A stretch of DNA of 64,000 bases, taken from the NCBI GenBank assembly GCA_003223875.1, contig QHWY01000087.1, forward strand, positions 4,267-68,266, given 5' to 3'. Each line of letters starts with the position of its first letter. The first letter of the stretch is position 1. The notes below the pieces were generated by a model, which saw only the letters and a program-made list of their open reading frames with translations, did not search any database and was not told the DNA's origin. This DNA comes from Acidobacteriota bacterium (lineage in GTDB: Bacteria; Acidobacteriota; Terriglobia; 20CM-2-55-15). The position numbers were made by a program, and so were the translations under genes. This document shows positions 4,990 to 47,950 of the stretch, piece by piece.

Positions 4990-5086
4990 ATTCAATCTGA
5001 AATTTGAAATCTTGGAATCTCGACTTTCAAATTATTGGAGATTGCAAATTCCAAAATTGCAGATTGGAAATTGAAGAGAAATATTT
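4990..5086. other. AT-rich (~30% GC) 97-bp intercistronic spacer with reiterated GAAATT/TTGCAAAT-type motifs between rpmD and rplO
   Basis: The sequence tctgaaatttgaaatcttgg...ttgcaaattccaaaattgcagattggaaattg contrasts with ~58% GC in the flanking genes. Confidence 0.6.
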
Positions 5087-5542
5087 ATGGCAGGTATAAA
5101 CACACTCAGGCCGGATCCGGGATCTACGCACAAGACTAAACGGATTGGGCGTGGTCCGGGCACCGGACACGGCAAGACGGCGGGGCGCGGGAACAAAGGT
5201 ATGTGGTCGCGTTCGGGAAGCAGTCAAAAGCGCGGTTTCGAAGGCGGGCAGATGCCTCTGCACCGGCGATTGCCCAAGCGCGGATTCACCAATGCGCCCT
5301 TCAAGAAGGAGTTCTCGACCGTTAACGTTAGCGATCTCGTGAAATTCGACAAGGGCTCGAAAATTGGTCCTCAGGAACTTTTGACTGCGGGAATTATTCG
5401 CAAACTCGAAAAGAACGGCCTGCGAATCCTCGGCGATGGCCGGATCGATCGTGTGCTGCACGTTTCCGCTCATTATTTCACTGAGGGGGCCCGGCAAAAG
5501 ATCACCAGCGCGGGAGGAACCTGCGAGGTAATACGTCTGTGA
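5087..5542 (+). CDS. rplO: 50S ribosomal protein L15
   Basis: The Gly/Arg-rich N-terminus [18 protein letters not shown] is L15. Confidence 0.93.
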
Positions 5543-9480: not shown

Positions 9481-10485
9481 ATGCTTTGGAAGGGTTTTCA
9501 AAAACCGAAAAGACTGACCGTCGGGAGCGAGCCGCCCGCGACGGAAACCTACGCTCAATTTTCAGCGCAGCCATTTGAGCGAGGATTTGGAACAACCATC
9601 GGCAATGCACTCCGTCGCGTACTGCTGTCGTCGATCGAGGGCGCGGCGATCACTGCCGTAAAAATCGAAGGTGTGTTGCACGAGTTCTCATCGATTCCGG
9701 GCGTCGTCGAAGATGCCACCGATATCATTCTCAACCTGAAGCAGATTCCGCTGAAGCTGCACGGCGAGGAGCGTAAAACGATTTACCTTAAAGGGCTCCA
9801 GCCTGGCGCCTACACCTCAGGCAATATCGAACACGATCCCGATATTGAGATTCTGGACAAGAACATTTATATCGGCACGGTGAGCGAAGGTGGTGCGTTG
9901 CAGATCGAAATGCGTGTCCAAAATGGGCGAGGGTATGTTTCCGCCGACCGCAATTTCGATGAGGATCTTGGAATCGGTTACATTCCCGTCGACTCGGTTC
10001 ATTCGCCGGTCCGCAAAGTTAATTACTGGGTCGAAGCCGCCCGCTTGGGTCAGGTCACCGATTACGACAAACTCACCATCGAAGTCTGGACCAACGGTTC
10101 GATTACCCCCCAGGATGCGCTGGGATTGGCGGCGAAGCTGATCAAGGACCACATGCAGATCTTCATTCAATTCGAAGAGAAACCCGAGCCCGTGGAGGAG
10201 CAGACTGAGGTGCGGCACGACGCTGTTATCGAGCACTTGAACAAGTCCGTGGACGAACTCGAACTGTCGGTCCGCTCCTACAATTGTCTGAAGAATGCCA
10301 ACATCCGGACCATCGGAGAACTCGTCACCAAGACCGAGGCCGAGATGCTCAAGACGAAGAACTTCGGCCGCAAGTCTCTCAACGAAATCAAAGAAATCCT
10401 CGGCAGTATGGGCCTGCAACTGGGCATGAAACTGGATGACCACGGCCGGCCAGTGATGCCCGCCTCGACAGAGCAAACAGTGTGA
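9481..10485 (+). CDS. rpoA: DNA-directed RNA polymerase subunit alpha
   Basis: A 334-aa protein with N-terminal and C-terminal alpha domains, in alpha-operon order. Confidence 0.95.
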
Positions 10486-10486
10486 T

Positions 10487-10945
10487 ATGAGACACAGGAA
10501 CGCGCATCGCAAACTCAGCCGGAACACGTCGCACCGCCGCGCGTTGCTTCGTAATCTCGTTACCGATTTTCTGGATCACGGCCGTCTCATGACAACTCTG
10601 CCGAAGGCAAAGGAGATTCGGCCGCTTGCCGAAAAGATGATCACGCTCGGCAAGCGCGACAACCTTCACGCCCGCCGCCAGCTTCAGGCATTTCTTCTTC
10701 GCGAGGCTGTAGCAAAGAAAGTATTCGATACGATTGCCCCTCGTTTCGCCGATCGCAACGGGGGCTACAGCCGCATTATCAAGCTCGGAAACCGTAAAGG
10801 CGACGGCGCGGATTTGGCCATCATCGAATTGCTGGGCAGCGAACTGGAAGTGAAGAAAGCCGAACGCGCGGAAAAAGACAAAGAGAAGCAGACGAAGCAA
10901 GCGGGCAAGGAAAAGAAGGAAGAAAAGGAAGAAAAGGAAGAGTAA
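10487..10945 (+). CDS. rplQ: 50S ribosomal protein L17 with a Lys/Glu-rich C-terminal tail
   Basis: MRHRNAHRKLSRNTSHRRALLRNL is L17. The last ~30 aa are EKDKEKQTKQAGKEKKEEKEEKEE. Confidence 0.93.
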   Translation: MRHRNAHRKLSRNTSHRRALLRNLVTDFLDHGRLMTTLPKAKEIRPLAEKMITLGKRDNLHARRQLQAFLLREAVAKKVFDTIAPRFADRNGGYSRIIKLGNRKGDGADLAIIELLGSELEVKKAERAEKDKEKQTKQAGKEKKEEKEEKEE

Positions 10946-33831: not shown

Positions 33832-34628
33832 AAGCGGCCCCATGGATTTTGTGTTTCTTGACGGCCGCCATTCCACTTCGGGCTGAGAGCGTCAACGTCG
33901 CGGCAGCCTCTGATCTCAATTTTGCTGTCCAGGAAATCATCAAATCATTCGAACACAATACAGGCAATACGGTTCGTCTCACGCTCGGCTCCTCGGGTAA
34001 TTTCTATGCCCAGATTTTGAATGGGGCACCGTTCGACGTGTTTCTCTCGGCCGATATGGACTATCCGAAGCGACTCGAGAGACAAGGATACTCGGTGCCC
34101 GGCTCAACATTTACTTATGGTGTCGGCCGACTTGCATTGTGGGTGCCGAACCGATCATCTCTGGATCTCGATAAAATTGGAATGAACGCTTTGCTAGATG
34201 ATTCGATTAGGAAGATCGCGATTGCGAATCCGGAACACGCACCGTACGGGCGCGCGGCGGTTGCCGCTCTGGAACATACGAAGCTTTACGATCGTGTCAA
34301 GGGCAAGCTTGTACTTGGAGAAAATGTCTCGCAAGCCGCGCAATTCGTCCAATCGGGTGCTGCGGACGCCGGAATTGTCGCGATGTCGATTGCGCTATCT
34401 CGGCCAATGCGCGACGGCGGCCGATATTGGGCGGTTCCGGCCGATACTTACCCCCGACTCGAACAAGCTGCTGTGCTGTTGAAACACGCCGGTCCAGTGG
34501 GAAAAGCCTTTCACGAATGGCTTCGCAGCGCTGAAGCACGGAGAATTTTCGACAATTATGGCTTTGCCGCAAGCCGCGAAGCGCGTCAGGGCGTGTTGCC
34601 CCAGCCGCGAAGCGGCGTCAGAAGATAG
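33804..34628 (+). CDS. modA: Molybdate/tungstate(-like oxyanion) ABC transporter periplasmic binding protein
   Basis: ModA-family motif LTLGSSGNFYAQILNGAPFDVFLSAD, plus a signal peptide. Confidence 0.8.
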   Translation: MLGVLRASMKAAPWILCFLTAAIPLRAESVNVAAASDLNFAVQEIIKSFEHNTGNTVRLTLGSSGNFYAQILNGAPFDVFLSADMDYPKRLERQGYSVPGSTFTYGVGRLALWVPNRSSLDLDKIGMNALLDDSIRKIAIANPEHAPYGRAAVAALEHTKLYDRVKGKLVLGENVSQAAQFVQSGAADAGIVAMSIALSRPMRDGGRYWAVPADTYPRLEQAAVLLKHAGPVGKAFHEWLRSAEARRIFDNYGFAASREARQGVLPQPRSGVRR

Positions 34629-34800
34629 CCCAGCGCGCGAGCGCTGGGGTTTGTGTTCGTCCATGTCACAGCCCCGGAGGGGCGGCAGATTTGAAGCATC
34701 TGCCGCCGCTTCGCGGCTTGTGTCGGCTGTGAAATCAAAGCCAGGGCTGACGCCCTGGGCTAGTGTTGCCGCTTCGCGGCTTTGAGCAAGAGGGCTGGCG
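34629..34800. repeat. REP-like array (CCCAGCGCGCGAGCGCTGGGG, GCCCCGGAGGGGCGGC, CCAGGGCTGACGCCCTGGG, GGCTGGCGCCCTGGG) between modA and modB
   Basis: These GC-rich palindromic units have the same consensus as the REPs flanking the RAYT at 47140-47830. Confidence 0.7.
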
Positions 34801-39293: not shown

Positions 39294-42200
39294 TTGTTCT
39301 TAGTCCTCTTAGTAATACTGTTGTTCAGGGCCTTGCCCGCGACAGCTGCATCTTCGGCTAATCCCATCTATGGCAAGCTCGATTTAGCTTTCGAGCGAAA
39401 CCTCGGGCAGGCTGCCCACCGCGTGAAATTTCTCAGCCGCGGAAGCGGATATACGGTCTTTCTCACCCAAGACGAAGCGGTTGTTGGACTTACAGCTCCG
39501 AAGACATCGGCGGTTCGGATGAAACTGCTGGGCCAAAACAGACATCCGCAGTTGGAAGGGATGGACCGGCTCCCGGGCTCGGCGAATTATCTCAAGGCAC
39601 AGTCTCAGACCACGGACATACCACGATACAGAAAAGTCCGATATTCGGATGTTTATCCCGGAATTGATGTCATCTACCACGGCAACGGCCAACTTCTCGA
39701 GTACGATTTCGTGGTTAGTCCTGGAGCCGATCCAAACAGAATCCGGCTCGGCTTCTCGGGGATCCGTTCGACGTCGCTCGACACTGCGGGCGATCTTGTA
39801 CTTACAACGGATGGTGACCCGATCCTTCAACGTAAACCTCGTGCGTATCAGACGATCGAGGGGCTCGAGAAAACCGTCGACGTATCCTACGTCCTTTCCG
39901 CCAACCATGTGAAATTCCATATCGGCGACTATGACAAGACCAAGCCGCTCATCATTGATCCTCTGCTCGTCTACTCCACGTACTTTGGCGGCTCTGGTCC
40001 CGACCAAGGAAATGCCATCACGGTCGATGTCGAGGGCAGCGTATATGTGACTGGTGTCACGACTTCAGTAGATTTCGCCGTCGCGTCCGCCACGCAGGGC
40101 AAGTATGCCGGCGGGACCACAGATGCGTTCGTACTCAAGCTCGATGCAACTGGGACCCAAATTGTGTACTCGACCTATATTGGCGGTTCCAGCTCAGATG
40201 AAGGGCACTCGATTGCCGTCGATACCGGCGGCAACGCTTACATGACGGGGTTCAGCTCTTCTAACGACTTCCCAATTATCAATGGCTTTCAGAGAACACG
40301 TGGTGGGCTTTTGGATGCATATGTCCTGAAGCTGAACAGGGCGGGTAACGCGATTCTATTCTCGAGTTTCCTGGGCGGCTCCGACGACGACCGAGGGTAC
40401 GGTATTGCTCTTGATGCAGGCAGAAACATTTACGTTACCGGAACTACAAGGTCCGGCAATTTTCCAATCGCTAATCCATACCAGCGCAACTACGCGGGAG
40501 GATTCGCCGATGCTTTTGTGACCAAGATCGGCTCCGCGGGAAATCTGATTTATTCCACGTACACGGGGGGCATCGGCAACGATAACCCATTCGCCATTGC
40601 GGTTGACGGCAATGGAGCGGCGTATGTTACCGGTTTCACCAGTTCGCCCAATTTTCCGCTTGTTAATGCTTTACAGAACGGCTTCGGCGGTGGTACCGAT
40701 GATGTTTTCGTATTCAAACTGAACCCCGCAGGCACAGCACTGCAGTATTCCACATACATCGGTGGAATCAGCTCCGACGAAGCAACCCGGATCGCCGTGG
40801 ACGAAGCAGGGAGCGCGTACATTACGGGATACACGAACTCCTCCCTGAATTTTCCGACCGTCAATGCCTACCAACCCACGATTGCAGGCTCTCCTGATGC
40901 TAACGGCGTTTGGCCTTTTGATGCCTTTGTCGCAAAACTATCGCCGGACGGCGCGTCGTTAATCTTTTCAACTTATTTCGGCGGCTCCATGCACGAGAGC
41001 GGCACCGGTATTGCTGTTGACGCAGGGCACAATATTTATATCTCCGGCTATACCAATTCATTCGATCTTCCTGTAGCCAATGCAATTCAGTCTTTCATAG
41101 GGGGAGAGCGCGACGCGTTCCTGGCAAAATTCGATCCGGCTGGAAACATACTCGTTTTTTCCACATTTCTCGGAGGGGCCGCCTCTGAGTCCGCTGTTGG
41201 TTTGGCTCTGGACAATGCAGGGAACGCTTACGTCACAGGTTTCACATATTCAACGAATTTTCCTACTGCCAATCCGATTCAAGAGACAAACGCCGGTACA
41301 CCAGATACCTTTACTGCAAAGCTAAACTCAGCAGATATCGTCTCCTCGCAACAATTTCGAGTTGCGCCCCAGGGGGCCACATCATTAATTACCGAGGGTA
41401 AACGGACCGATGCAGTATTTGGCTATGCCACGGCAGAATCAGCGCCGGGCACGCAGCTCGCCGGGTTGGCGATCGTCGACCGCAGGCAAAATGGCGCGAC
41501 CGTCAGTGAAGTGTCGGTGCCGGCGCCGCCCTTTTTGGACGTCGGACGTCTGTTTGTGGACGTATCGTCGAGCGGCCGTTCGGTCGTATCGATCGCAAAC
41601 CCGAATGACAGCGACGTGACGGTCGATTTTTTTTACACGAATGACAAAGGAGATTCATCAAAGTTTGTAACCGTGACGGTCACCGCGCACCAGCACTTTT
41701 CTAAGTTCGTTACGGATGATCCGCTCAAGATCGATGCTCCGGGAACGCTGAATTTCACATCATCTCTCCCGGTCGCGGCAACCGCGTTCTTCACCATTAC
41801 CAACGAATCCAGCGAGCTTTTGCTCAGCGGCACACCTATCGTAAATACGTTTCAGTATTCGGCCGGTTTTGGCGATAAAACGGTCACAATCCCAGAGCTT
41901 TCCGACGGCGCCGGATGGACCACCGATATGGTGCTCGTCAACACCAGCGAAGATCAAATGAACGGGGAGGTGCGCTTCTTTGATCAAGGGAGCGGATCTC
42001 AAGCCGGAAGTCCGCTTGAACTCGGAATCGGCGATGGCACCACTGTGGCTCCGGCTGTGGAATACAATATTCCGCCTCGCAGCTTTCAGAAGATCGCCAC
42101 CGCCGGCAACGCAACGGCTTCGGAGGTTCCATTTGCGGTAAATCGCGGCGCGTCGTTCAGTACACCGGGTGGTGGAGTAACCCAGATATCGGGATGGGCA

Positions 42201-44177
42201 TCTGCCGATACCGTGGCGCTGGACGCGCGGCTCACGGGATTGGAAATCCTGCAGTACCGTCAAACCGGTGTCACTCAGAGTGAAGCCGGTGTACTGGCGC
42301 CTCCTCTTCGCCAAAGCGGCGGTTTACTTGTCGAAGTTACCGACAAGATCCGGTCGTTGATCGCCATCGCCAATCCAAACAATCAAGATGTCGCAGTTGA
42401 TTTTTACCTGACCGATGATGCGGGAACATCGACAGGTTCGGTCAGCGTCACTGTCCCCGCCGGCGGCCAGTATTCGGCGTTTGTTGCCGACGCTCCGATC
42501 AGCGTGCCCACGGGGCAGGCTCGAGCGCTGAATTTCAATGCATCCCTGCCAGTTTTTGTCAGCGCCTTGCGCTTCTTTACGAATGAGCGAAACGACAGCC
42601 TTCTGAGCTCGATTCCGATAGCCGATAATGCAAACGTGGCAACCGAGGTCGTCGTCATTCCAGACTTCGCCGATGGAGCAGGCTGGAGCAGCAAAGTCAT
42701 CCTCGTAAACAACAGCGATGAACCGATGCAAGGCGTCATCCAGTTCGTGGGCCAAGGTTCGCCAACGGAACCTCCTCAAGGCGTTCTGGTTGGGACAGCA
42801 GTCGGTACAGATACCGTTTTTGAATATGGCATCGCGCCGCACAGTTTCTATCGACTCGAGACAAATGGCGCGCAGGACAATCTCTCTCTCGGTTCCATCT
42901 ATATCCACCCCTCCCCTGGCTTCGGGACACCGCATACACATGCGATCATCCAGCAGCAAGCTGGAGGAAACACGATTTATCAGACGTCGTTTGAGGGGCA
43001 AATTCCAGCCACGACCTTCAGTTTTTATGCCGAGGCTGTTGGCGATTTCGATGCTGGTAAACCGAAGTCCACGAGCACCGCCATTGCGATCGCAAATCCA
43101 TCCAGTGGTGTCGCGACGGTTCGGTTGGAACTGACGTCCTTTGGTGGGTCAACGTTGGCGACTTCATCGCCTGTTCAAATCCCCGGCTACGGCCAGATCG
43201 TCTTTTTTCTTTCTCAGATTCCCGGCATGGAATTTGTGAAGGCGCCGTTTCAGGGAATATTGCGGCTCAATGCTGTTTCGGGGATGCCAGTCACTGCGGC
43301 GGCGGTGCGCGTCCTCATCAACGAACGTTCGGATTACCTTGTCACTCCGACAGGGCCCCTGAACGAAAGCGCAGGCGCGCCGGGCCATTTGGTCTTTCCT
43401 TACATCACCGACAGTACCGGCTATACGACACAATTCGTCTTAATTAATGGGCCGGGCGTGGCCAATGTGAGCGGCATTCTTCACTACTTAGGAACCGATG
43501 GATCTCCGCTGCAGGTGACTGCACTGAAACTGGGTTCAATTCAGGTGGTCCCCTTCGCGGGCTTCAATACTCCCCATGCGCATGCGATCCTAAGCCGAAA
43601 GGAGGGAGGGGTTCTCATATTCCAAACTTCTGTGGAGGCAGAAAGGCCGCTACAGACTTTTCGCGTCTACACCGAATCGGTAGGCGATTTTGACGCCGGC
43701 ATTGCTGGTTCGACTCGGAGCGCGATTGCTCTGGCGAATCCGTCAGACTCTCTCGTGAGCGTGCGGCTGGAATTGCGAGGTCTTGATGGTGTTCTGCTGA
43801 GAACGTCACAGCCGCTCGTTATTCCCGCATTTGGCCAAGTCACGATGTTTTTGAATCAAGTTCCGGGATTTGAAACGCTCGGTGCGCCGTTCGAGGGTAT
43901 TTTGCAAGTTACCGCCGTTTCCGGCCCGGGTGTCACCGGCGCTGGTTTCCGAGCTATATTCAATGAGCGAGGAAATGCGCTCTTTATCACCACGGGACCT
44001 TTAGTCGAAAACGCGGGCGTGCCTGGCATGATTGTGTTTCCGCATCTAGCCGAAGGCGGCGGCTATACGATGCAATTCGTCGTTGTTGGCGGCACGCCGG
44101 GGCAGAGCGATTCCGGCTTGCTCCGTTTTTTCAACCAGCAAGGTAATCCCTTGAACGTCACATTAGGGGAGCGCTGA
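39294..44177 (+). CDS. Giant secreted protein: N-terminal SBBP (seven-bladed beta-propeller) repeats followed by ~8 tandem ~110-aa beta-sandwich-like repeats
   Basis: A 1627-aa protein with a TTG start, GGAGG RBS and signal peptide. YSTY(I/F)GG...D.G..IAVD..GN.Y(V/I)TG.T.S.(D/N)FP is reiterated >10 times. The C-terminal half repeats a module containing IANP...V.VDF(Y/F)...IP(E/D)(F/L)(S/A)DGAGW.T..(V/I)LVN.S. Confidence 0.8.
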   Translation: MFLVLLVILLFRALPATAASSANPIYGKLDLAFERNLGQAAHRVKFLSRGSGYTVFLTQDEAVVGLTAPKTSAVRMKLLGQNRHPQLEGMDRLPGSANYLKAQSQTTDIPRYRKVRYSDVYPGIDVIYHGNGQLLEYDFVVSPGADPNRIRLGFSGIRSTSLDTAGDLVLTTDGDPILQRKPRAYQTIEGLEKTVDVSYVLSANHVKFHIGDYDKTKPLIIDPLLVYSTYFGGSGPDQGNAITVDVEGSVYVTGVTTSVDFAVASATQGKYAGGTTDAFVLKLDATGTQIVYSTYIGGSSSDEGHSIAVDTGGNAYMTGFSSSNDFPIINGFQRTRGGLLDAYVLKLNRAGNAILFSSFLGGSDDDRGYGIALDAGRNIYVTGTTRSGNFPIANPYQRNYAGGFADAFVTKIGSAGNLIYSTYTGGIGNDNPFAIAVDGNGAAYVTGFTSSPNFPLVNALQNGFGGGTDDVFVFKLNPAGTALQYSTYIGGISSDEATRIAVDEAGSAYITGYTNSSLNFPTVNAYQPTIAGSPDANGVWPFDAFVAKLSPDGASLIFSTYFGGSMHESGTGIAVDAGHNIYISGYTNSFDLPVANAIQSFIGGERDAFLAKFDPAGNILVFSTFLGGAASESAVGLALDNAGNAYVTGFTYSTNFPTANPIQETNAGTPDTFTAKLNSADIVSSQQFRVAPQGATSLITEGKRTDAVFGYATAESAPGTQLAGLAIVDRRQNGATVSEVSVPAPPFLDVGRLFVDVSSSGRSVVSIANPNDSDVTVDFFYTNDKGDSSKFVTVTVTAHQHFSKFVTDDPLKIDAPGTLNFTSSLPVAATAFFTITNESSELLLSGTPIVNTFQYSAGFGDKTVTIPELSDGAGWTTDMVLVNTSEDQMNGEVRFFDQGSGSQAGSPLELGIGDGTTVAPAVEYNIPPRSFQKIATAGNATASEVPFAVNRGASFSTPGGGVTQISGWASADTVALDARLTGLEILQYRQTGVTQSEAGVLAPPLRQSGGLLVEVTDKIRSLIAIANPNNQDVAVDFYLTDDAGTSTGSVSVTVPAGGQYSAFVADAPISVPTGQARALNFNASLPVFVSALRFFTNERNDSLLSSIPIADNANVATEVVVIPDFADGAGWSSKVILVNNSDEPMQGVIQFVGQGSPTEPPQGVLVGTAVGTDTVFEYGIAPHSFYRLETNGAQDNLSLGSIYIHPSPGFGTPHTHAIIQQQAGGNTIYQTSFEGQIPATTFSFYAEAVGDFDAGKPKSTSTAIAIANPSSGVATVRLELTSFGGSTLATSSPVQIPGYGQIVFFLSQIPGMEFVKAPFQGILRLNAVSGMPVTAAAVRVLINERSDYLVTPTGPLNESAGAPGHLVFPYITDSTGYTTQFVLINGPGVANVSGILHYLGTDGSPLQVTALKLGSIQVVPFAGFNTPHAHAILSRKEGGVLIFQTSVEAERPLQTFRVYTESVGDFDAGIAGSTRSAIALANPSDSLVSVRLELRGLDGVLLRTSQPLVIPAFGQVTMFLNQVPGFETLGAPFEGILQVTAVSGPGVTGAGFRAIFNERGNALFITTGPLVENAGVPGMIVFPHLAEGGGYTMQFVVVGGTPGQSDSGLLRFFNQQGNPLNVTLGER

Positions 44178-44189
44178 GAGATCTGGATG

Positions 44190-44495
44190 CTATGGCCGAC
44201 GATCGCGCGGCTCCGAGGGCCGCTGCGCTCGTCCGTCAGAGCGCGGTGTCTGGGGCAATGCTTCGTTTACGGTAAGGACTCGGCCCCCCATGCGCTGGCC
44301 GTTTAGAGCGTTGATCGCATCCTTCAGTTTCCATTCTTCGTTCAATACGACGAATCCGAAACCGCGAGATTGTCCAGTGGACCTATCGCGGATAATTTGC
44401 GCCGATTCCACCTGAAATCCCTGTGATTCTACCCACTCCTGCAGCTCTGTGTCGGCGGAAGCATGGGGTATATTTCCAATGAAAAGTTTTGTCAT
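44190..44495 (-). CDS. RRM-type RNA-binding protein
   Basis: RNP-2 LFIGNIP and RNP-1 RGFGFVVL motifs in a ~90-aa RRM protein. Confidence 0.88.
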   Translation of the reverse strand: MTKLFIGNIPHASADTELQEWVESQGFQVESAQIIRDRSTGQSRGFGFVVLNEEWKLKDAINALNGQRMGGRVLTVNEALPQTPRSDGRAQRPSEPRDRRP

Positions 44496-44610: not shown

Positions 44611-45192
44611 TCAGGCCTCTCGGCTCCTCACGATGATGACTGCAAAGTCGTCGCGGATTTTTTGAGATGCAGTTAACTGATCTTCCGTTTCGAAAAGCCT
44701 TCGTAAGTAATCCAAGGATCCGGTGTGTTCCTCGCAAAAATTTCCTGCGATGTCATACAACAGTTCGTGCAGGATCGCCCCTCCGTAGCCTTTGACTTCC
44801 AAGATCCTGAAGTATTGGGCCAGGAGCGGCACGATCTCCAATGAGCGAACGGCCTCGGAAGGATCCGCAGCAGCCATATAGGCCACAGTTTTCCGAACGA
44901 TACGTTCCTTGAATTTGGACTGATCCGATATGAGCCGGCGAAGATGTTTCGGAAGCTGTTGAAGTTGTTCATTCATAGTCTGGATTTGCGCATCCGTCCA
45001 TTGGAATCGGCTCGGTCCAATGAATTCGTCCAGACGATTCAGTCGTGCCGTGCCCGAGACCTTGAGGTTGATACGTTCCTGGACTAGCGGGTGCTCGAGC
45101 CAGTGCTGGACCTGACTTCCACCCCAGATCCGGCCGGAGCCCCAAACATACTTGATACGCTCGAGGTTCTTTCGCGAAAACAGTCTGAACAT
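44611..45192 (-). CDS. Hypothetical protein
   Basis: This ORF has no recognisable family. The start was taken at an internal ATG (45192), because the longer ORF-track form overlaps the OsmC-like gene by 85 bp. Confidence 0.45.
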   Translation of the reverse strand: MFRLFSRKNLERIKYVWGSGRIWGGSQVQHWLEHPLVQERINLKVSGTARLNRLDEFIGPSRFQWTDAQIQTMNEQLQQLPKHLRRLISDQSKFKERIVRKTVAYMAAADPSEAVRSLEIVPLLAQYFRILEVKGYGGAILHELLYDIAGNFCEEHTGSLDYLRRLFETEDQLTASQKIRDDFAVIIVRSREA

Positions 45193-45203
45193 AGACAGGG
45201 AAC

Positions 45204-45701
45204 TCAGCCCTCTGTTCGCGAATTTTCCTCGAGCGTGTACGACGATGTGATTTCGATCGCCGTATGTAGAGTGCGGAACAATGGGCACTTGTCTGCGAAA
45301 ATCCCATGTACGCGTTCCACTGTGTCGCGCGTACTTTCCGGCGCCCGAAGCGTAAAGTCGATGTGAATCCTTCGAATTACCAGCACACCCTGGTCAGCTT
45401 CAATCTCGCCGCGGACGGAGGCGGTGAGCCGGCCGTCGCTCGCGTCAATTTTGCGCGCTTCCAGCGCGCCTCCGAAAGTGCCCAGCATTCAGCCGGCCGT
45501 GGCGGCAACGACGTAATCGATCGTTGCCGCGTGCGATTCGCCTAGTTTCTTCTCATCGACTCCGTAGTGTTTCGCGATACCGCCGTGCACGCTGAACGTG
45601 ATTGGCCTTTCTTCACCTGGCAAATACGCCAAGCGGAGTGGTCCTTTGCGTCTTTCCAGACGAACCGTTGAAACATAAACGACTTCTGCCATGGACTCCA
45701 C
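45204..45701 (-). CDS. OsmC/Ohr-family peroxiredoxin-like protein interrupted by a single in-frame TGA (45489-45491) at the position of the conserved N-terminal active-site Cys. Candidate selenocysteine codon, or alternatively a nonsense pseudogene
   Basis: ORFs 45489-45701 and 45204-45488 are in the same frame. Joined they read ...IDYVVAATAG-[TGA]-MLGTFGGALE...KCPLFRTL, matching the OsmC family ...LAGC(F/L)..T... and ...KCP(V/L)S.... A GC-rich stem-loop (GCGCGC-UGGAA-GCGCGC, lower stem UUU/AAA) lies 19 nt 3' of the UGA in the mRNA. Confidence 0.6.
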
Positions 45702-45815: not shown

Positions 45816-47132
45816 ATGGGCGACGGGATCACAAACGAACTTCAAACGTCCTTGGATGCGTGGAACACGCTGGCGGAGGAGGAGCGGGTCACCACGTTCC
45901 AGCAGTTGCCGTACGCGGAGAAAGACGACTTCTTTCTCGCCTTGAGCGCGCGGGACCAGGCGGAACTGATCCTCTCGCTTCCGCCGGGTGAACGGCGCAT
46001 TTGGGCGCGCCTGCTTCCGCCCGACGACGCCACCGACCTCATTCAAGAAGCGCCTGAAGAAGAACGGGCGGGACTAATGGCCCTCATGGACGATTACACG
46101 CGGCGTGAAGTGGGTGCGCTGCTTGCTTATGCGGAAGATGATGCCGGCGGTCTGATGAGCCCGCGTTTCGCGCGTCTTCGTCCCGATATGACGGTGGACG
46201 AGGCCATCGCTTATCTGCGCAGGCAAGCTGAGCAGGTGGAAACGATTCACTACGCCTACGTGCTCGATTCGGAGCAGCACCTTCTGGGAATCGTACCGCT
46301 GCGCCGGTTGATGTCGGCGCGCAAAGACCAGACTGTCCGTGAAATCATGCGGACCGATTTCGTGGCCGCTTCAGAAGAAATGGATCAGGAAGCGCTTGCC
46401 AAACTGTTTTCTAAAGAACATCTGTTCGCGATGCCTATCGTCGACAAGGAAGGCCGGATGAAGGGTATCGTGACGGCGGATGACATCGTCAACGTCGTTA
46501 CCGAAGAAGCCAGCGAAGATATTCAAAAAATCGGTGGTATGGAGGCTCTCGAGGGACCGTATCTGCAAGTGCAGTTCGCCGAAATGGTCAAAAAGCGAGG
46601 CGGGTGGCTGGCTGCCCTATTTCTAGGAGAAATGCTGACCGCGACTGCCATGGGTTTCTTCGAACAGGAGATCGCACGAGCCGTTGTGCTTGCGCTGTTT
46701 ATTCCTTTGATCATCAGCAGCGGCGGAAACTCGGGGTCGCAGGCGACAAGTTTAGTTATTCGCGCAATGGCCTTAGGTGAAGTCCGGCTTCGCGATTGGT
46801 GGCGCGTTGTACGCCGGGAAGTCGCCGCGGGGTTTGCTCTTGGGTGCATGCTGGGCTCGATCGGAATGATCCGTATTCTCGCGTGGCAAACCGTACGTCC
46901 TGGTCTCTATGGACCCCACTACCTTTTGGTTGCCATTACCGTGGCCTGCAGCCTGATTGGCGTGGTCTTATTTGGCACCGTCGTCGGCTCGATGCTTCCA
47001 TTCATCCTTCGCAGCCTTGGCTTCGACCCAGCCAGCGCGTCCGCGCCCTTCGTTGCCACTCTTGTCGACGTCACGGGCCTCGTCATCTACTTCAGTGTCG
47101 CCAGCGTCATTCTCCGCGGGACGCTACTGTAA
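45816..47132 (+). CDS. mgtE: Magnesium transporter MgtE
   Basis: N-terminal MgtE_N, two CBS domains, and a C-terminal 5-transmembrane domain with D-x-x-x-(Q/G) motifs. Confidence 0.9.
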   Translation: MGDGITNELQTSLDAWNTLAEEERVTTFQQLPYAEKDDFFLALSARDQAELILSLPPGERRIWARLLPPDDATDLIQEAPEEERAGLMALMDDYTRREVGALLAYAEDDAGGLMSPRFARLRPDMTVDEAIAYLRRQAEQVETIHYAYVLDSEQHLLGIVPLRRLMSARKDQTVREIMRTDFVAASEEMDQEALAKLFSKEHLFAMPIVDKEGRMKGIVTADDIVNVVTEEASEDIQKIGGMEALEGPYLQVQFAEMVKKRGGWLAALFLGEMLTATAMGFFEQEIARAVVLALFIPLIISSGGNSGSQATSLVIRAMALGEVRLRDWWRVVRREVAAGFALGCMLGSIGMIRILAWQTVRPGLYGPHYLLVAITVACSLIGVVLFGTVVGSMLPFILRSLGFDPASASAPFVATLVDVTGLVIYFSVASVILRGTLL

Positions 47133-47139
47133 GCGCCGC

Positions 47140-47296
47140 GCAGCGGCGTCAAGACATCAGCCCAGGGCGGCAGCCCTGGGGACAGAATCGACAAAGCAGT
47201 CCAGCCCCGAAGGGGCGGCAAGAGATTAGCCCAGGGCGTCAGCCCTGGGTGACAGGATGGAAATAGAAGTCCAGCCCCGAAGGGGCGGCAGAACTC
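47140..47296. repeat. Tandem REP units (~62 bp x2: AGCCCAGGGCGKCAGCCCTGGG...GTCCAGCCCCGAAGGGGCGGCA) at the 3' end of the RAYT gene
   Basis: The two units are near-identical and can be read directly. Each contains two hairpins. Confidence 0.85.
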
Positions 47297-47764: not shown

Positions 47765-47830
47765 TGCGGTTTCATGGGCCAGACGTTTTCCCAGGGCTGA
47801 CGCCCTGGGCTATTTTCTGACGCCGCTGCG
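47765..47830. repeat. REP units (CCCAGGGCTGACGCCCTGGG; CGCCGCTGCGCGGCG) at the 5' side of the RAYT gene
   Basis: Seen directly. Same consensus as 47140-47296 and 34629-34800. Confidence 0.8.
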
Positions 47831-47950
47831 CGGCGTTGGAGCGCTCAATGATCTTACTCCCGTGACGTGATATGCAGCTTCACTTCGTCGGAGACAGGAG
47901 CCCAGACGCGAAATCGGCACCGGTTGTCGTCCAACCAAACCGCTCCAAGG

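Follow-up and report, generated by a model that had tools for sequence, protein, structure and literature searches.

Two open reading frames on the minus strand of the 64,000-nucleotide stretch of Acidobacteriota DNA analysed here (hereafter the window) lie in the same frame and abut at a single TGA codon, which raises the question of whether they represent a broken gene, two separate genes or one gene whose internal UGA is translated. The evidence set out below argues very strongly for the last of these, i.e., for one intact gene encoding a predicted 162-residue thiol/selenol peroxidase of the OsmC fold, in which the UGA at codon 68 is decoded as selenocysteine (Sec). A preliminary description of this DNA had likewise preferred Sec recoding to a nonsense pseudogene, and that preference is upheld by about 160 diverged loci carrying the same TGA, by Cys-containing homologues, by purifying selection, by a constrained downstream hairpin and by tRNA-Sec genes close to orthologues. 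The features of the locus, together with those of a neighbouring gene in relatives, are collected in Table 1.

Table 1. Coordinates of the OsmC-like locus in the window, and of the adjacent AhpC-TSA/Redoxin-DsbD_N gene in related loci
Feature	Position	Strand	Remarks
OsmC/Ohr-fold ORF, predicted selenoprotein	45204..45692	-	162 codons + TGA stop 45204-45206; M1 at ATG 45692-45690, Sec68, Cys136
First half-ORF	45489..45701	-	70 aa, terminates at TGA 45489-45491
Second half-ORF	45204..45488	-	94 aa; same frame as, and abutting, 45489..45701
In-frame UGA, predicted to be read as Sec (residue 68)	45489-45491	-	Motif TAG-U-MLGTFGGALEAR; column compared across 172 sites
Cys136 codon (KCPLF)	45285-45287	-	Conserved second redox Cys; invariant in family alignments
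SECIS-like stem-loop	45445..45475	-	Upper stem 45463-45469 with 45453-45459, loop GGA 45460-45462
Lower helix of stem-loop, UCGG/UUGA	45472-45475 with 45445-45448	-	Separated from upper stem by internal loop
AhpC-TSA/Redoxin-DsbD_N gene, predicted selenoprotein	L002:2-1036	+	Upstream of OsmC-like gene
Further loci with AhpC-TSA/Redoxin-DsbD_N gene	L015, L017, L026, L029, L033, L037, L040, L043, L048, L054, L060-L066, L068, L070, L077, L080, L081

That the two frames belong to a single OsmC/Ohr-family protein, as was initially proposed, is borne out by their abutting positions and by the match of the joined translation, with Cys placed at the TGA, to the Pfam OsmC family PF02566 (E 2e-12, 47.9 bits; curated cut-off 27.5 bits). 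The TGA had also been described as the sole interruption of the frame and the second conserved Cys, within the KCPLF motif, as intact; both statements hold, since the 162-codon frame is otherwise open and the Cys is present at codon 136. Translation most likely begins at the ATG at 45692, not at the GTG at 45701, because homologues open with MS-EVVYVS, the corresponding residues of the window gene being MAEVVYVS. The GenBank/ENA gene calls are split at the TGA into ORFs of 70 and 94 aa, and GenBank lists a hypothetical protein from an Acidobacteria MAG that is identical to the C-terminal half.

The codon at the putative Sec column was compared across 172 sites in total, 165 of which carry TGA. 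The family is represented by at least 585 confirmed loci in GTDB species genomes (one genome per species) and at least 554 in metagenome contigs. In the best 80 of the former, which belong to the Acidobacteriota plus a few other labels and share 62-81% protein identity, the column is TGA in every case (80/80), while 79 of the best 80 soil metagenome loci, retrieved with a query built solely from Cys-containing homologues, possess TGA and the remaining one TGC. TGA was also read in the DNA of two further loci, L001 and L002, for which the database proteins show W. The question of whether homologues carry Cys or Sec at this position, raised in the preliminary description, is thus answered predominantly by TGA, with rare instances of TGC or TGT. 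Across the TGA-bearing loci the protein identity is 60-81%, and a frameshift or second stop is found in none of them. In addition, the gene of the window was read in four independent assemblies, whose DNA displays an identical TGA context, which argues against a sequencing error.

Selection was assessed separately on either side of the TGA. Over 3237 pairs, pN/pS has a median of 0.25 on the N-terminal side and of 0.26 on the C-terminal side, and comparison of the window gene with its relatives returned, for both halves, pN values of 0.10-0.26 and pS values of about 0.6-0.9, i.e., saturated synonymous sites. These substitution patterns indicate that both halves are translated and are under equal purifying selection. 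A recent nonsense mutation, leaving a pseudogene truncated at codon 68, would agree with the two separate database ORFs and with the lack of Sec machinery inside the window (see below), yet it is contradicted by the recurrence of the same TGA in so many diverged loci and by the identical TGA context across the independent assemblies read, while propagation of a pseudogene through one contaminating sequence is at odds with the pairwise protein identities given above. Because both halves are equally constrained with saturated synonymous sites, and because neither a frameshift nor an additional stop is present, a nonsense pseudogene is considered to be excluded for practical purposes.

A different genetic code, in which TGA would be a sense codon for Trp or Gly, might be suspected from database entries, given that among the best 120 homologues (P0001-P0120) the column is occupied by W in 81, C in ten, G in five and S in one. 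However, DNA was read for three of the W proteins: two (those of L001 and L002) have TGA, a stop in table 11, and the third (P0021) has a true TGG, while the G protein that was checked has a true GGA. TGA, which had been noted previously to serve as an ordinary stop elsewhere in the window, is in fact the commonest stop there, being used by 14 of the 27 open frames that reach 300 codons or more, and the OsmC-like gene itself also ends in TGA. An alternative code is therefore excluded for the window, as TGA ends conserved genes there, and the probability left to this explanation is negligible. A further 20 of the 120 best homologues consist of the post-TGA half alone, these C-terminal-only matches being 89-95 residues long and starting right after the TGA. 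Gene callers systematically mis-render this OsmC-like family, and public records of it are wrong in nearly all cases, either through splitting into two 'hypothetical' ORFs or through rendering of the UGA as Trp.

Only seven of the 172 sites have a non-Sec codon at the column. Cys codons (TGC/TGT) occur in L091 (3202), L092 (3199), L093 (1218) and L160, the Trp codon TGG in L003 (816) and L004 (785), which represent one lineage, and the Gly codon GGA in L094 (575); all four variant codons are a single mutational step away from TGA.

Downstream of the UGA, the mRNA contains a SECIS-like stem-loop. Its upper stem (45453-45469) begins 19 nt after the UGA and comprises 7 bp, GCGCGCU/AGCGCGC, closed by a GGA loop, or equivalently 6 bp with the loop UGGAA. 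Of the hairpin that was originally outlined, the GC stem at this distance is retained, while the proposed UUU/AAA lower stem with a 5-nt bulge was rejected, as it is paired in 48% of cells across 74 distinct relatives; an alternative lower helix, UCGG/UUGA, pairs in 97%. For the stem, pairing was observed in 98.4% of cells (74 distinct sequences), as opposed to 28-49% when the partners were slid. None of the 81 genes compared departs from Ala GCG, Leu CTG and Ala GCG at the three codons within the stem, whereas codon entropy amounts to 1.4-2.2 bits at all remaining conserved Ala and Leu columns. Furthermore, the flanking Gly is restricted to GGC or GGT and the Arg is almost wholly CGC or CGT, choices that preserve G-C or G-U pairs, and changes at the variable positions of the hairpin are wobble-compatible throughout.

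The hairpin core, GCGCUGGA(A/G/U)GCGCG, is kept in 147 of 151 distinct TGA-bearing sequences. Two of the four exceptions have a changed third loop base (GGA to GGC), L135 has a single mismatch, and in L156 one stem pair has changed from G-C to A-U in a compensatory manner, which entails an Ala to Val substitution. Within the first 81 sequences the core stem pairs do not vary, and shuffle controls therefore carry no information on covariation there; the compensatory change came to light in the enlarged set alone. Taken alone, the hairpin has no thermodynamic significance (z = -0.55 for 71 nt and -1.67 for 35 nt), and an Rfam scan of 45300-45600 with E values up to 10 returned neither a SECIS element nor any other family. 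The support for the hairpin being more than a chance structure is accordingly comparative in kind, coming from aligned relatives.

The hairpin sequence is also retained in all four Cys-form loci sampled, although these stand at a synonymous divergence of 0.55-0.9 from the closest Sec form in the sample. Either the conversions to Cys took place recently, when set against Sec relatives outside the sample, or factors other than Sec insertion also constrain the hairpin. Since four diverged Cys loci keep the hairpin, its specificity for Sec insertion is to be regarded as putative. The TGG form L003 has a synonymous change from GCG to GCT in the otherwise invariant stem Ala codon, comparable changes being present in L135 and L156 alone. 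This stem change is consistent with relaxed constraint in the TGG lineage and would fit a secondary loss of Sec.

Acidobacteria are known carriers of the Sec trait (PMC1794560, PMC12013277). Within the 64-kb window, searches for selA, selB and selD (tblastn with the E. coli SelA, SelB and SelD proteins) and for tRNA-Sec (ARAGORN) returned no match. In three relatives (L002, L028 and L068), on the other hand, a tRNA-Sec gene is located within about 0.2-2.2 kb of the OsmC-like orthologue, and in two of these, L028 and L068, selD, selA and selB lie alongside. All three tRNA-Sec genes were confirmed by ARAGORN and by Rfam RF01852 (58-63 bits; gathering score 47). The order on one strand of L068 is a Prx-like gene with an in-frame UGA (U), tRNA-Sec (5086-5184), selD(U), selA, selB and OsmC-like(U) (10001-10492), and the same gene set is present within about 6 kb in L028, while in L002 the tRNA-Sec gene is situated 164 nt downstream of the OsmC-like gene. 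The product of selD would itself be a selenoprotein, because a TGA interrupts selD at SSCAG-U-(A/G)(S/G)K (SSCAG-U-ASK in L068). Each of the three UGA-containing genes of L068 exhibits a GC stem with a 3-nt loop opening with G (GGA, GUU and GUU), 21-33 nt past the UGA. These compact 'Sec islands' span L068:3992-10492 and L028:1878-8294.

In approximately 25 of 80 genomic loci, a gene encoding a fusion of AhpC-TSA/Redoxin and DsbD_N domains is found directly upstream of the OsmC-like gene. It contains a conserved in-frame TGA in the motif FFRSADW-U-P[YF]CK (UxxC), followed about 14 nt past its UGA by a hairpin of the form GCAGCUG-GUN-CAGCUGC. No copy of this Prx-like/DsbD_N gene was detected in the 64-kb window by tblastn.

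The linkage to sel genes bears on the possibility that the UGA is read by a tRNA other than tRNA-Sec, be it a near-cognate tRNA-Trp, an allo-tRNA(UCA) or a Cys-tRNA(UCA), with insertion of Trp, Ser or Cys. Such readthrough is conceivable in that Acidobacteria carry unusual suppressor-like allo-tRNAs (PMC5389517), that natural TGG (Trp) and GGA (Gly) variants occur at the column, and that the persistence of the hairpin in Cys forms might mean that it is not SelB-specific. It is nonetheless assigned a very low probability: three relatives have a bona fide tRNA-Sec gene close to the orthologue, accompanied in two by selD, selA and selB; selenoproteins are typified by alternation of Sec and Cys at a catalytic redox position; non-Sec codons occupy few of the sites, and each is one step from TGA; and the TGG lineage holds one of just three changes in the invariant stem Ala codon.

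The position of the putative Sec within the OsmC fold was considered next to these genetic data. A search of PDB sequences with the single sequence returned spurious uS13 matches alone, and OsmC/Ohr structures were reached with a profile. The family profile aligns the Sec column with the Cys of Thermus thermophilus OsmC 1ukk ('HAGCFSMAL') and with that of 2opl ('ALSGCLTTS'), and Cys136 is matched to the C-terminal Cys-Pro of both OsmC 1ukk and OhrB 2bjo, these PDB profile alignments being individually weak (E 0.03-0.8). The claim that the TGA falls at the conserved active-site Cys is thereby sustained for OsmC proper and for the present subfamily; for Bacillus subtilis OhrB, a weak alignment places the Ohr Cys four residues downstream of the Sec column, opposite the T in GTFGG.

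The Cys homologue P0024 was modelled with AlphaFold (pLDDT 95.2, pTM 0.88), and in this model the Sec column falls within a long central helix (H57-79). Among the 50 rows listed, the Foldseek PDB matches of this model are all OsmC/Ohr-family structures, with TM scores of 0.6-0.8 and a probability of 1.00. As modelled, the OsmC-like gene product has the OsmC fold. Both redox residues expected of such a protein are present, Sec68 on the central helix and Cys136 in the C-terminal Cys-Pro motif.

These structural data also weigh on a further reading, according to which translation stops at the UGA and re-initiates at an adjacent AUG, yielding two polypeptides that assemble into the OsmC fold. Stop-start coupling of the UGA-AUG type is common in bacteria, and an ATG directly follows the TGA in 80 of 81 close relatives. 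In the wider family, however, the TGA is followed by Leu and not by a start codon (TGA-CTG in L001 and TGA-CTC in L101), and the Cys forms are read through as C-M or C-L. The break would moreover fall in the middle of the central helix, at the catalytic column, and would remove the catalytic residue, while the frozen hairpin and the linkage to sel genes would be left unexplained. A split gene of this kind is for these reasons viewed as having a slim chance of being correct.

With Sec recoding as the preferred reading, expression and function of the gene may be envisaged as follows. As the ribosome nears the UGA, SelB-GTP carrying Sec-tRNA(Sec) would bind the hairpin located 19 nt downstream, and Sec would be delivered at the UGA instead of release factor 2, allowing translation to run on to the TGA stop; in this organism, both SelB binding and Sec insertion are predictions. 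By analogy with the two-Cys OsmC/Ohr enzymes, the product would be a peroxidase in which a hydroperoxide is attacked by the selenolate of Sec68, located on the long central helix. Cys136, the putative resolving residue, would presumably convert the selenenic acid so formed to a selenenylsulfide, following which a thiol reductant would regenerate the enzyme. For many relatives, a candidate reductant partner is the Prx-like/DsbD_N selenoprotein encoded by the adjacent gene.

OsmC-like proteins have been an accepted selenoprotein family since the Sargasso Sea survey of 2005, where they were assigned to COG1765 with a UxxT motif (PMC1088965), and the statement in the preliminary description that OsmC-like families occur among predicted Sec/Cys families was correct (PMC1088965, PMC13188914). 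The marine OsmC-like selenoproteins (Sargasso Sea 2005/GOS 2008, YhfA type, NF041052, exemplar MCS5647933.1) have the PF02566 superfamily in common with the window protein. The U of MCS5647933.1 aligns with that of the window gene in both BLASTP and hhalign, at a homologous helix position, and the marine family and the soil clade alike possess a conserved C-terminal Cys and a hairpin downstream of the UGA. The two nevertheless differ in several respects. MCS5647933.1 and the window protein share 17% identity (pairwise E 0.034), and the window protein scores 17.4 bits (E 0.0033) against NCBIfam NF041052 'OsmC-related (seleno)protein', compared with a cut-off of 95. Where the exemplar has U-L-L-T, the window protein has U-M-L-G-T (UxxxT), with the Thr four residues past the Sec. 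The soil clade is further distinguished by about 55 additional residues that form a beta region at the N terminus and by its host, a soil Acidobacteriota member as opposed to marine plankton, and the Sec form is found in about 97% of the soil-clade loci seen.

The two-Cys OsmC/Ohr peroxidases (E. coli OsmC 1nye/1qwi, 1ukk, and Ohr 1usp/6eb4) share the fold of the window protein (Foldseek TM 0.6-0.8) and, likewise, carry their first and second redox residues on the central helix and within a Cys-Pro motif, respectively, whereas the window protein would have Sec in place of the first Cys. Its score against the OsmC peroxiredoxin subfamily TIGR03562 is 20.4 bits, far below the cut-off of 85.8. 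With respect to recoding, the SelB/SECIS system of E. coli fdhF similarly combines an in-frame UGA with a GC-rich stem in the coding sequence downstream of it, the apical loop of this stem being small and containing G. The fdhF SECIS and the window hairpin are unrelated in sequence, the role of SelB in the window gene is a predicted one, and the spacer between UGA and stem is 19 nt in the window as compared with roughly 11 nt in fdhF. The neighbouring Prx-like UxxC thiol:disulfide oxidoreductase selenoproteins differ from the OsmC-like protein in fold, being AhpC-TSA/Redoxin domains fused to DsbD_N; their presence shows that Sec is employed by more than one redox protein in these genomes.

The OsmC-like Sec clade thus appears as a very widespread representative of a known kind of selenoprotein that is not captured by the curated NCBIfam selenoprotein model. 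Its recognition amends the selenoproteome of a phylum that is dominant in soil and points to a predicted selenium-dependent peroxide defence in Acidobacteriota. While it leaves the understanding of the Sec recoding mechanism unchanged and introduces no new mechanism, it provides about 150 natural variants of a compact SECIS-like hairpin for the study of SelB recognition outside the enterobacteria. It is possible, if on balance doubtful, that the clade constitutes a separate OsmC subfamily in which Sec is the default across soil Acidobacteriota, with some lineages carrying a 'Sec island'. Were this the case, it would help to explain why Sec machinery is retained in largely aerobic soil bacteria, and the survival of the hairpin in the few Cys forms would reflect either Sec-to-Cys reversions that were repeated and of very recent date, or else an additional role of the hairpin.

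The surroundings of the OsmC-like gene in the window are also of note. On the same strand, 12 nt past its stop codon, begins a 193-aa ORF without a Pfam match (44611-45192, minus strand), after which comes a gene for an RRM-domain protein (44190..44495); this arrangement is kept in the close relatives L087-L090 and not in the wider family. The mgtE gene (45816..47132) and the OsmC-like gene are divergently oriented. The window also contains four Acido-Lenti-1 RNA copies (Rfam RF01687, 39-57 bits), at 34603-34648 (minus strand), 47134-47180 (minus), 47203-47249 (minus) and 47790-47835 (plus), three of them being clustered just downstream of mgtE. Finally, a secreted-looking repeat protein of 1627 aa with SBBP beta-propeller repeats and a DUF7948 domain is encoded on the plus strand at 39294-44177 and converges on the OsmC-like region.
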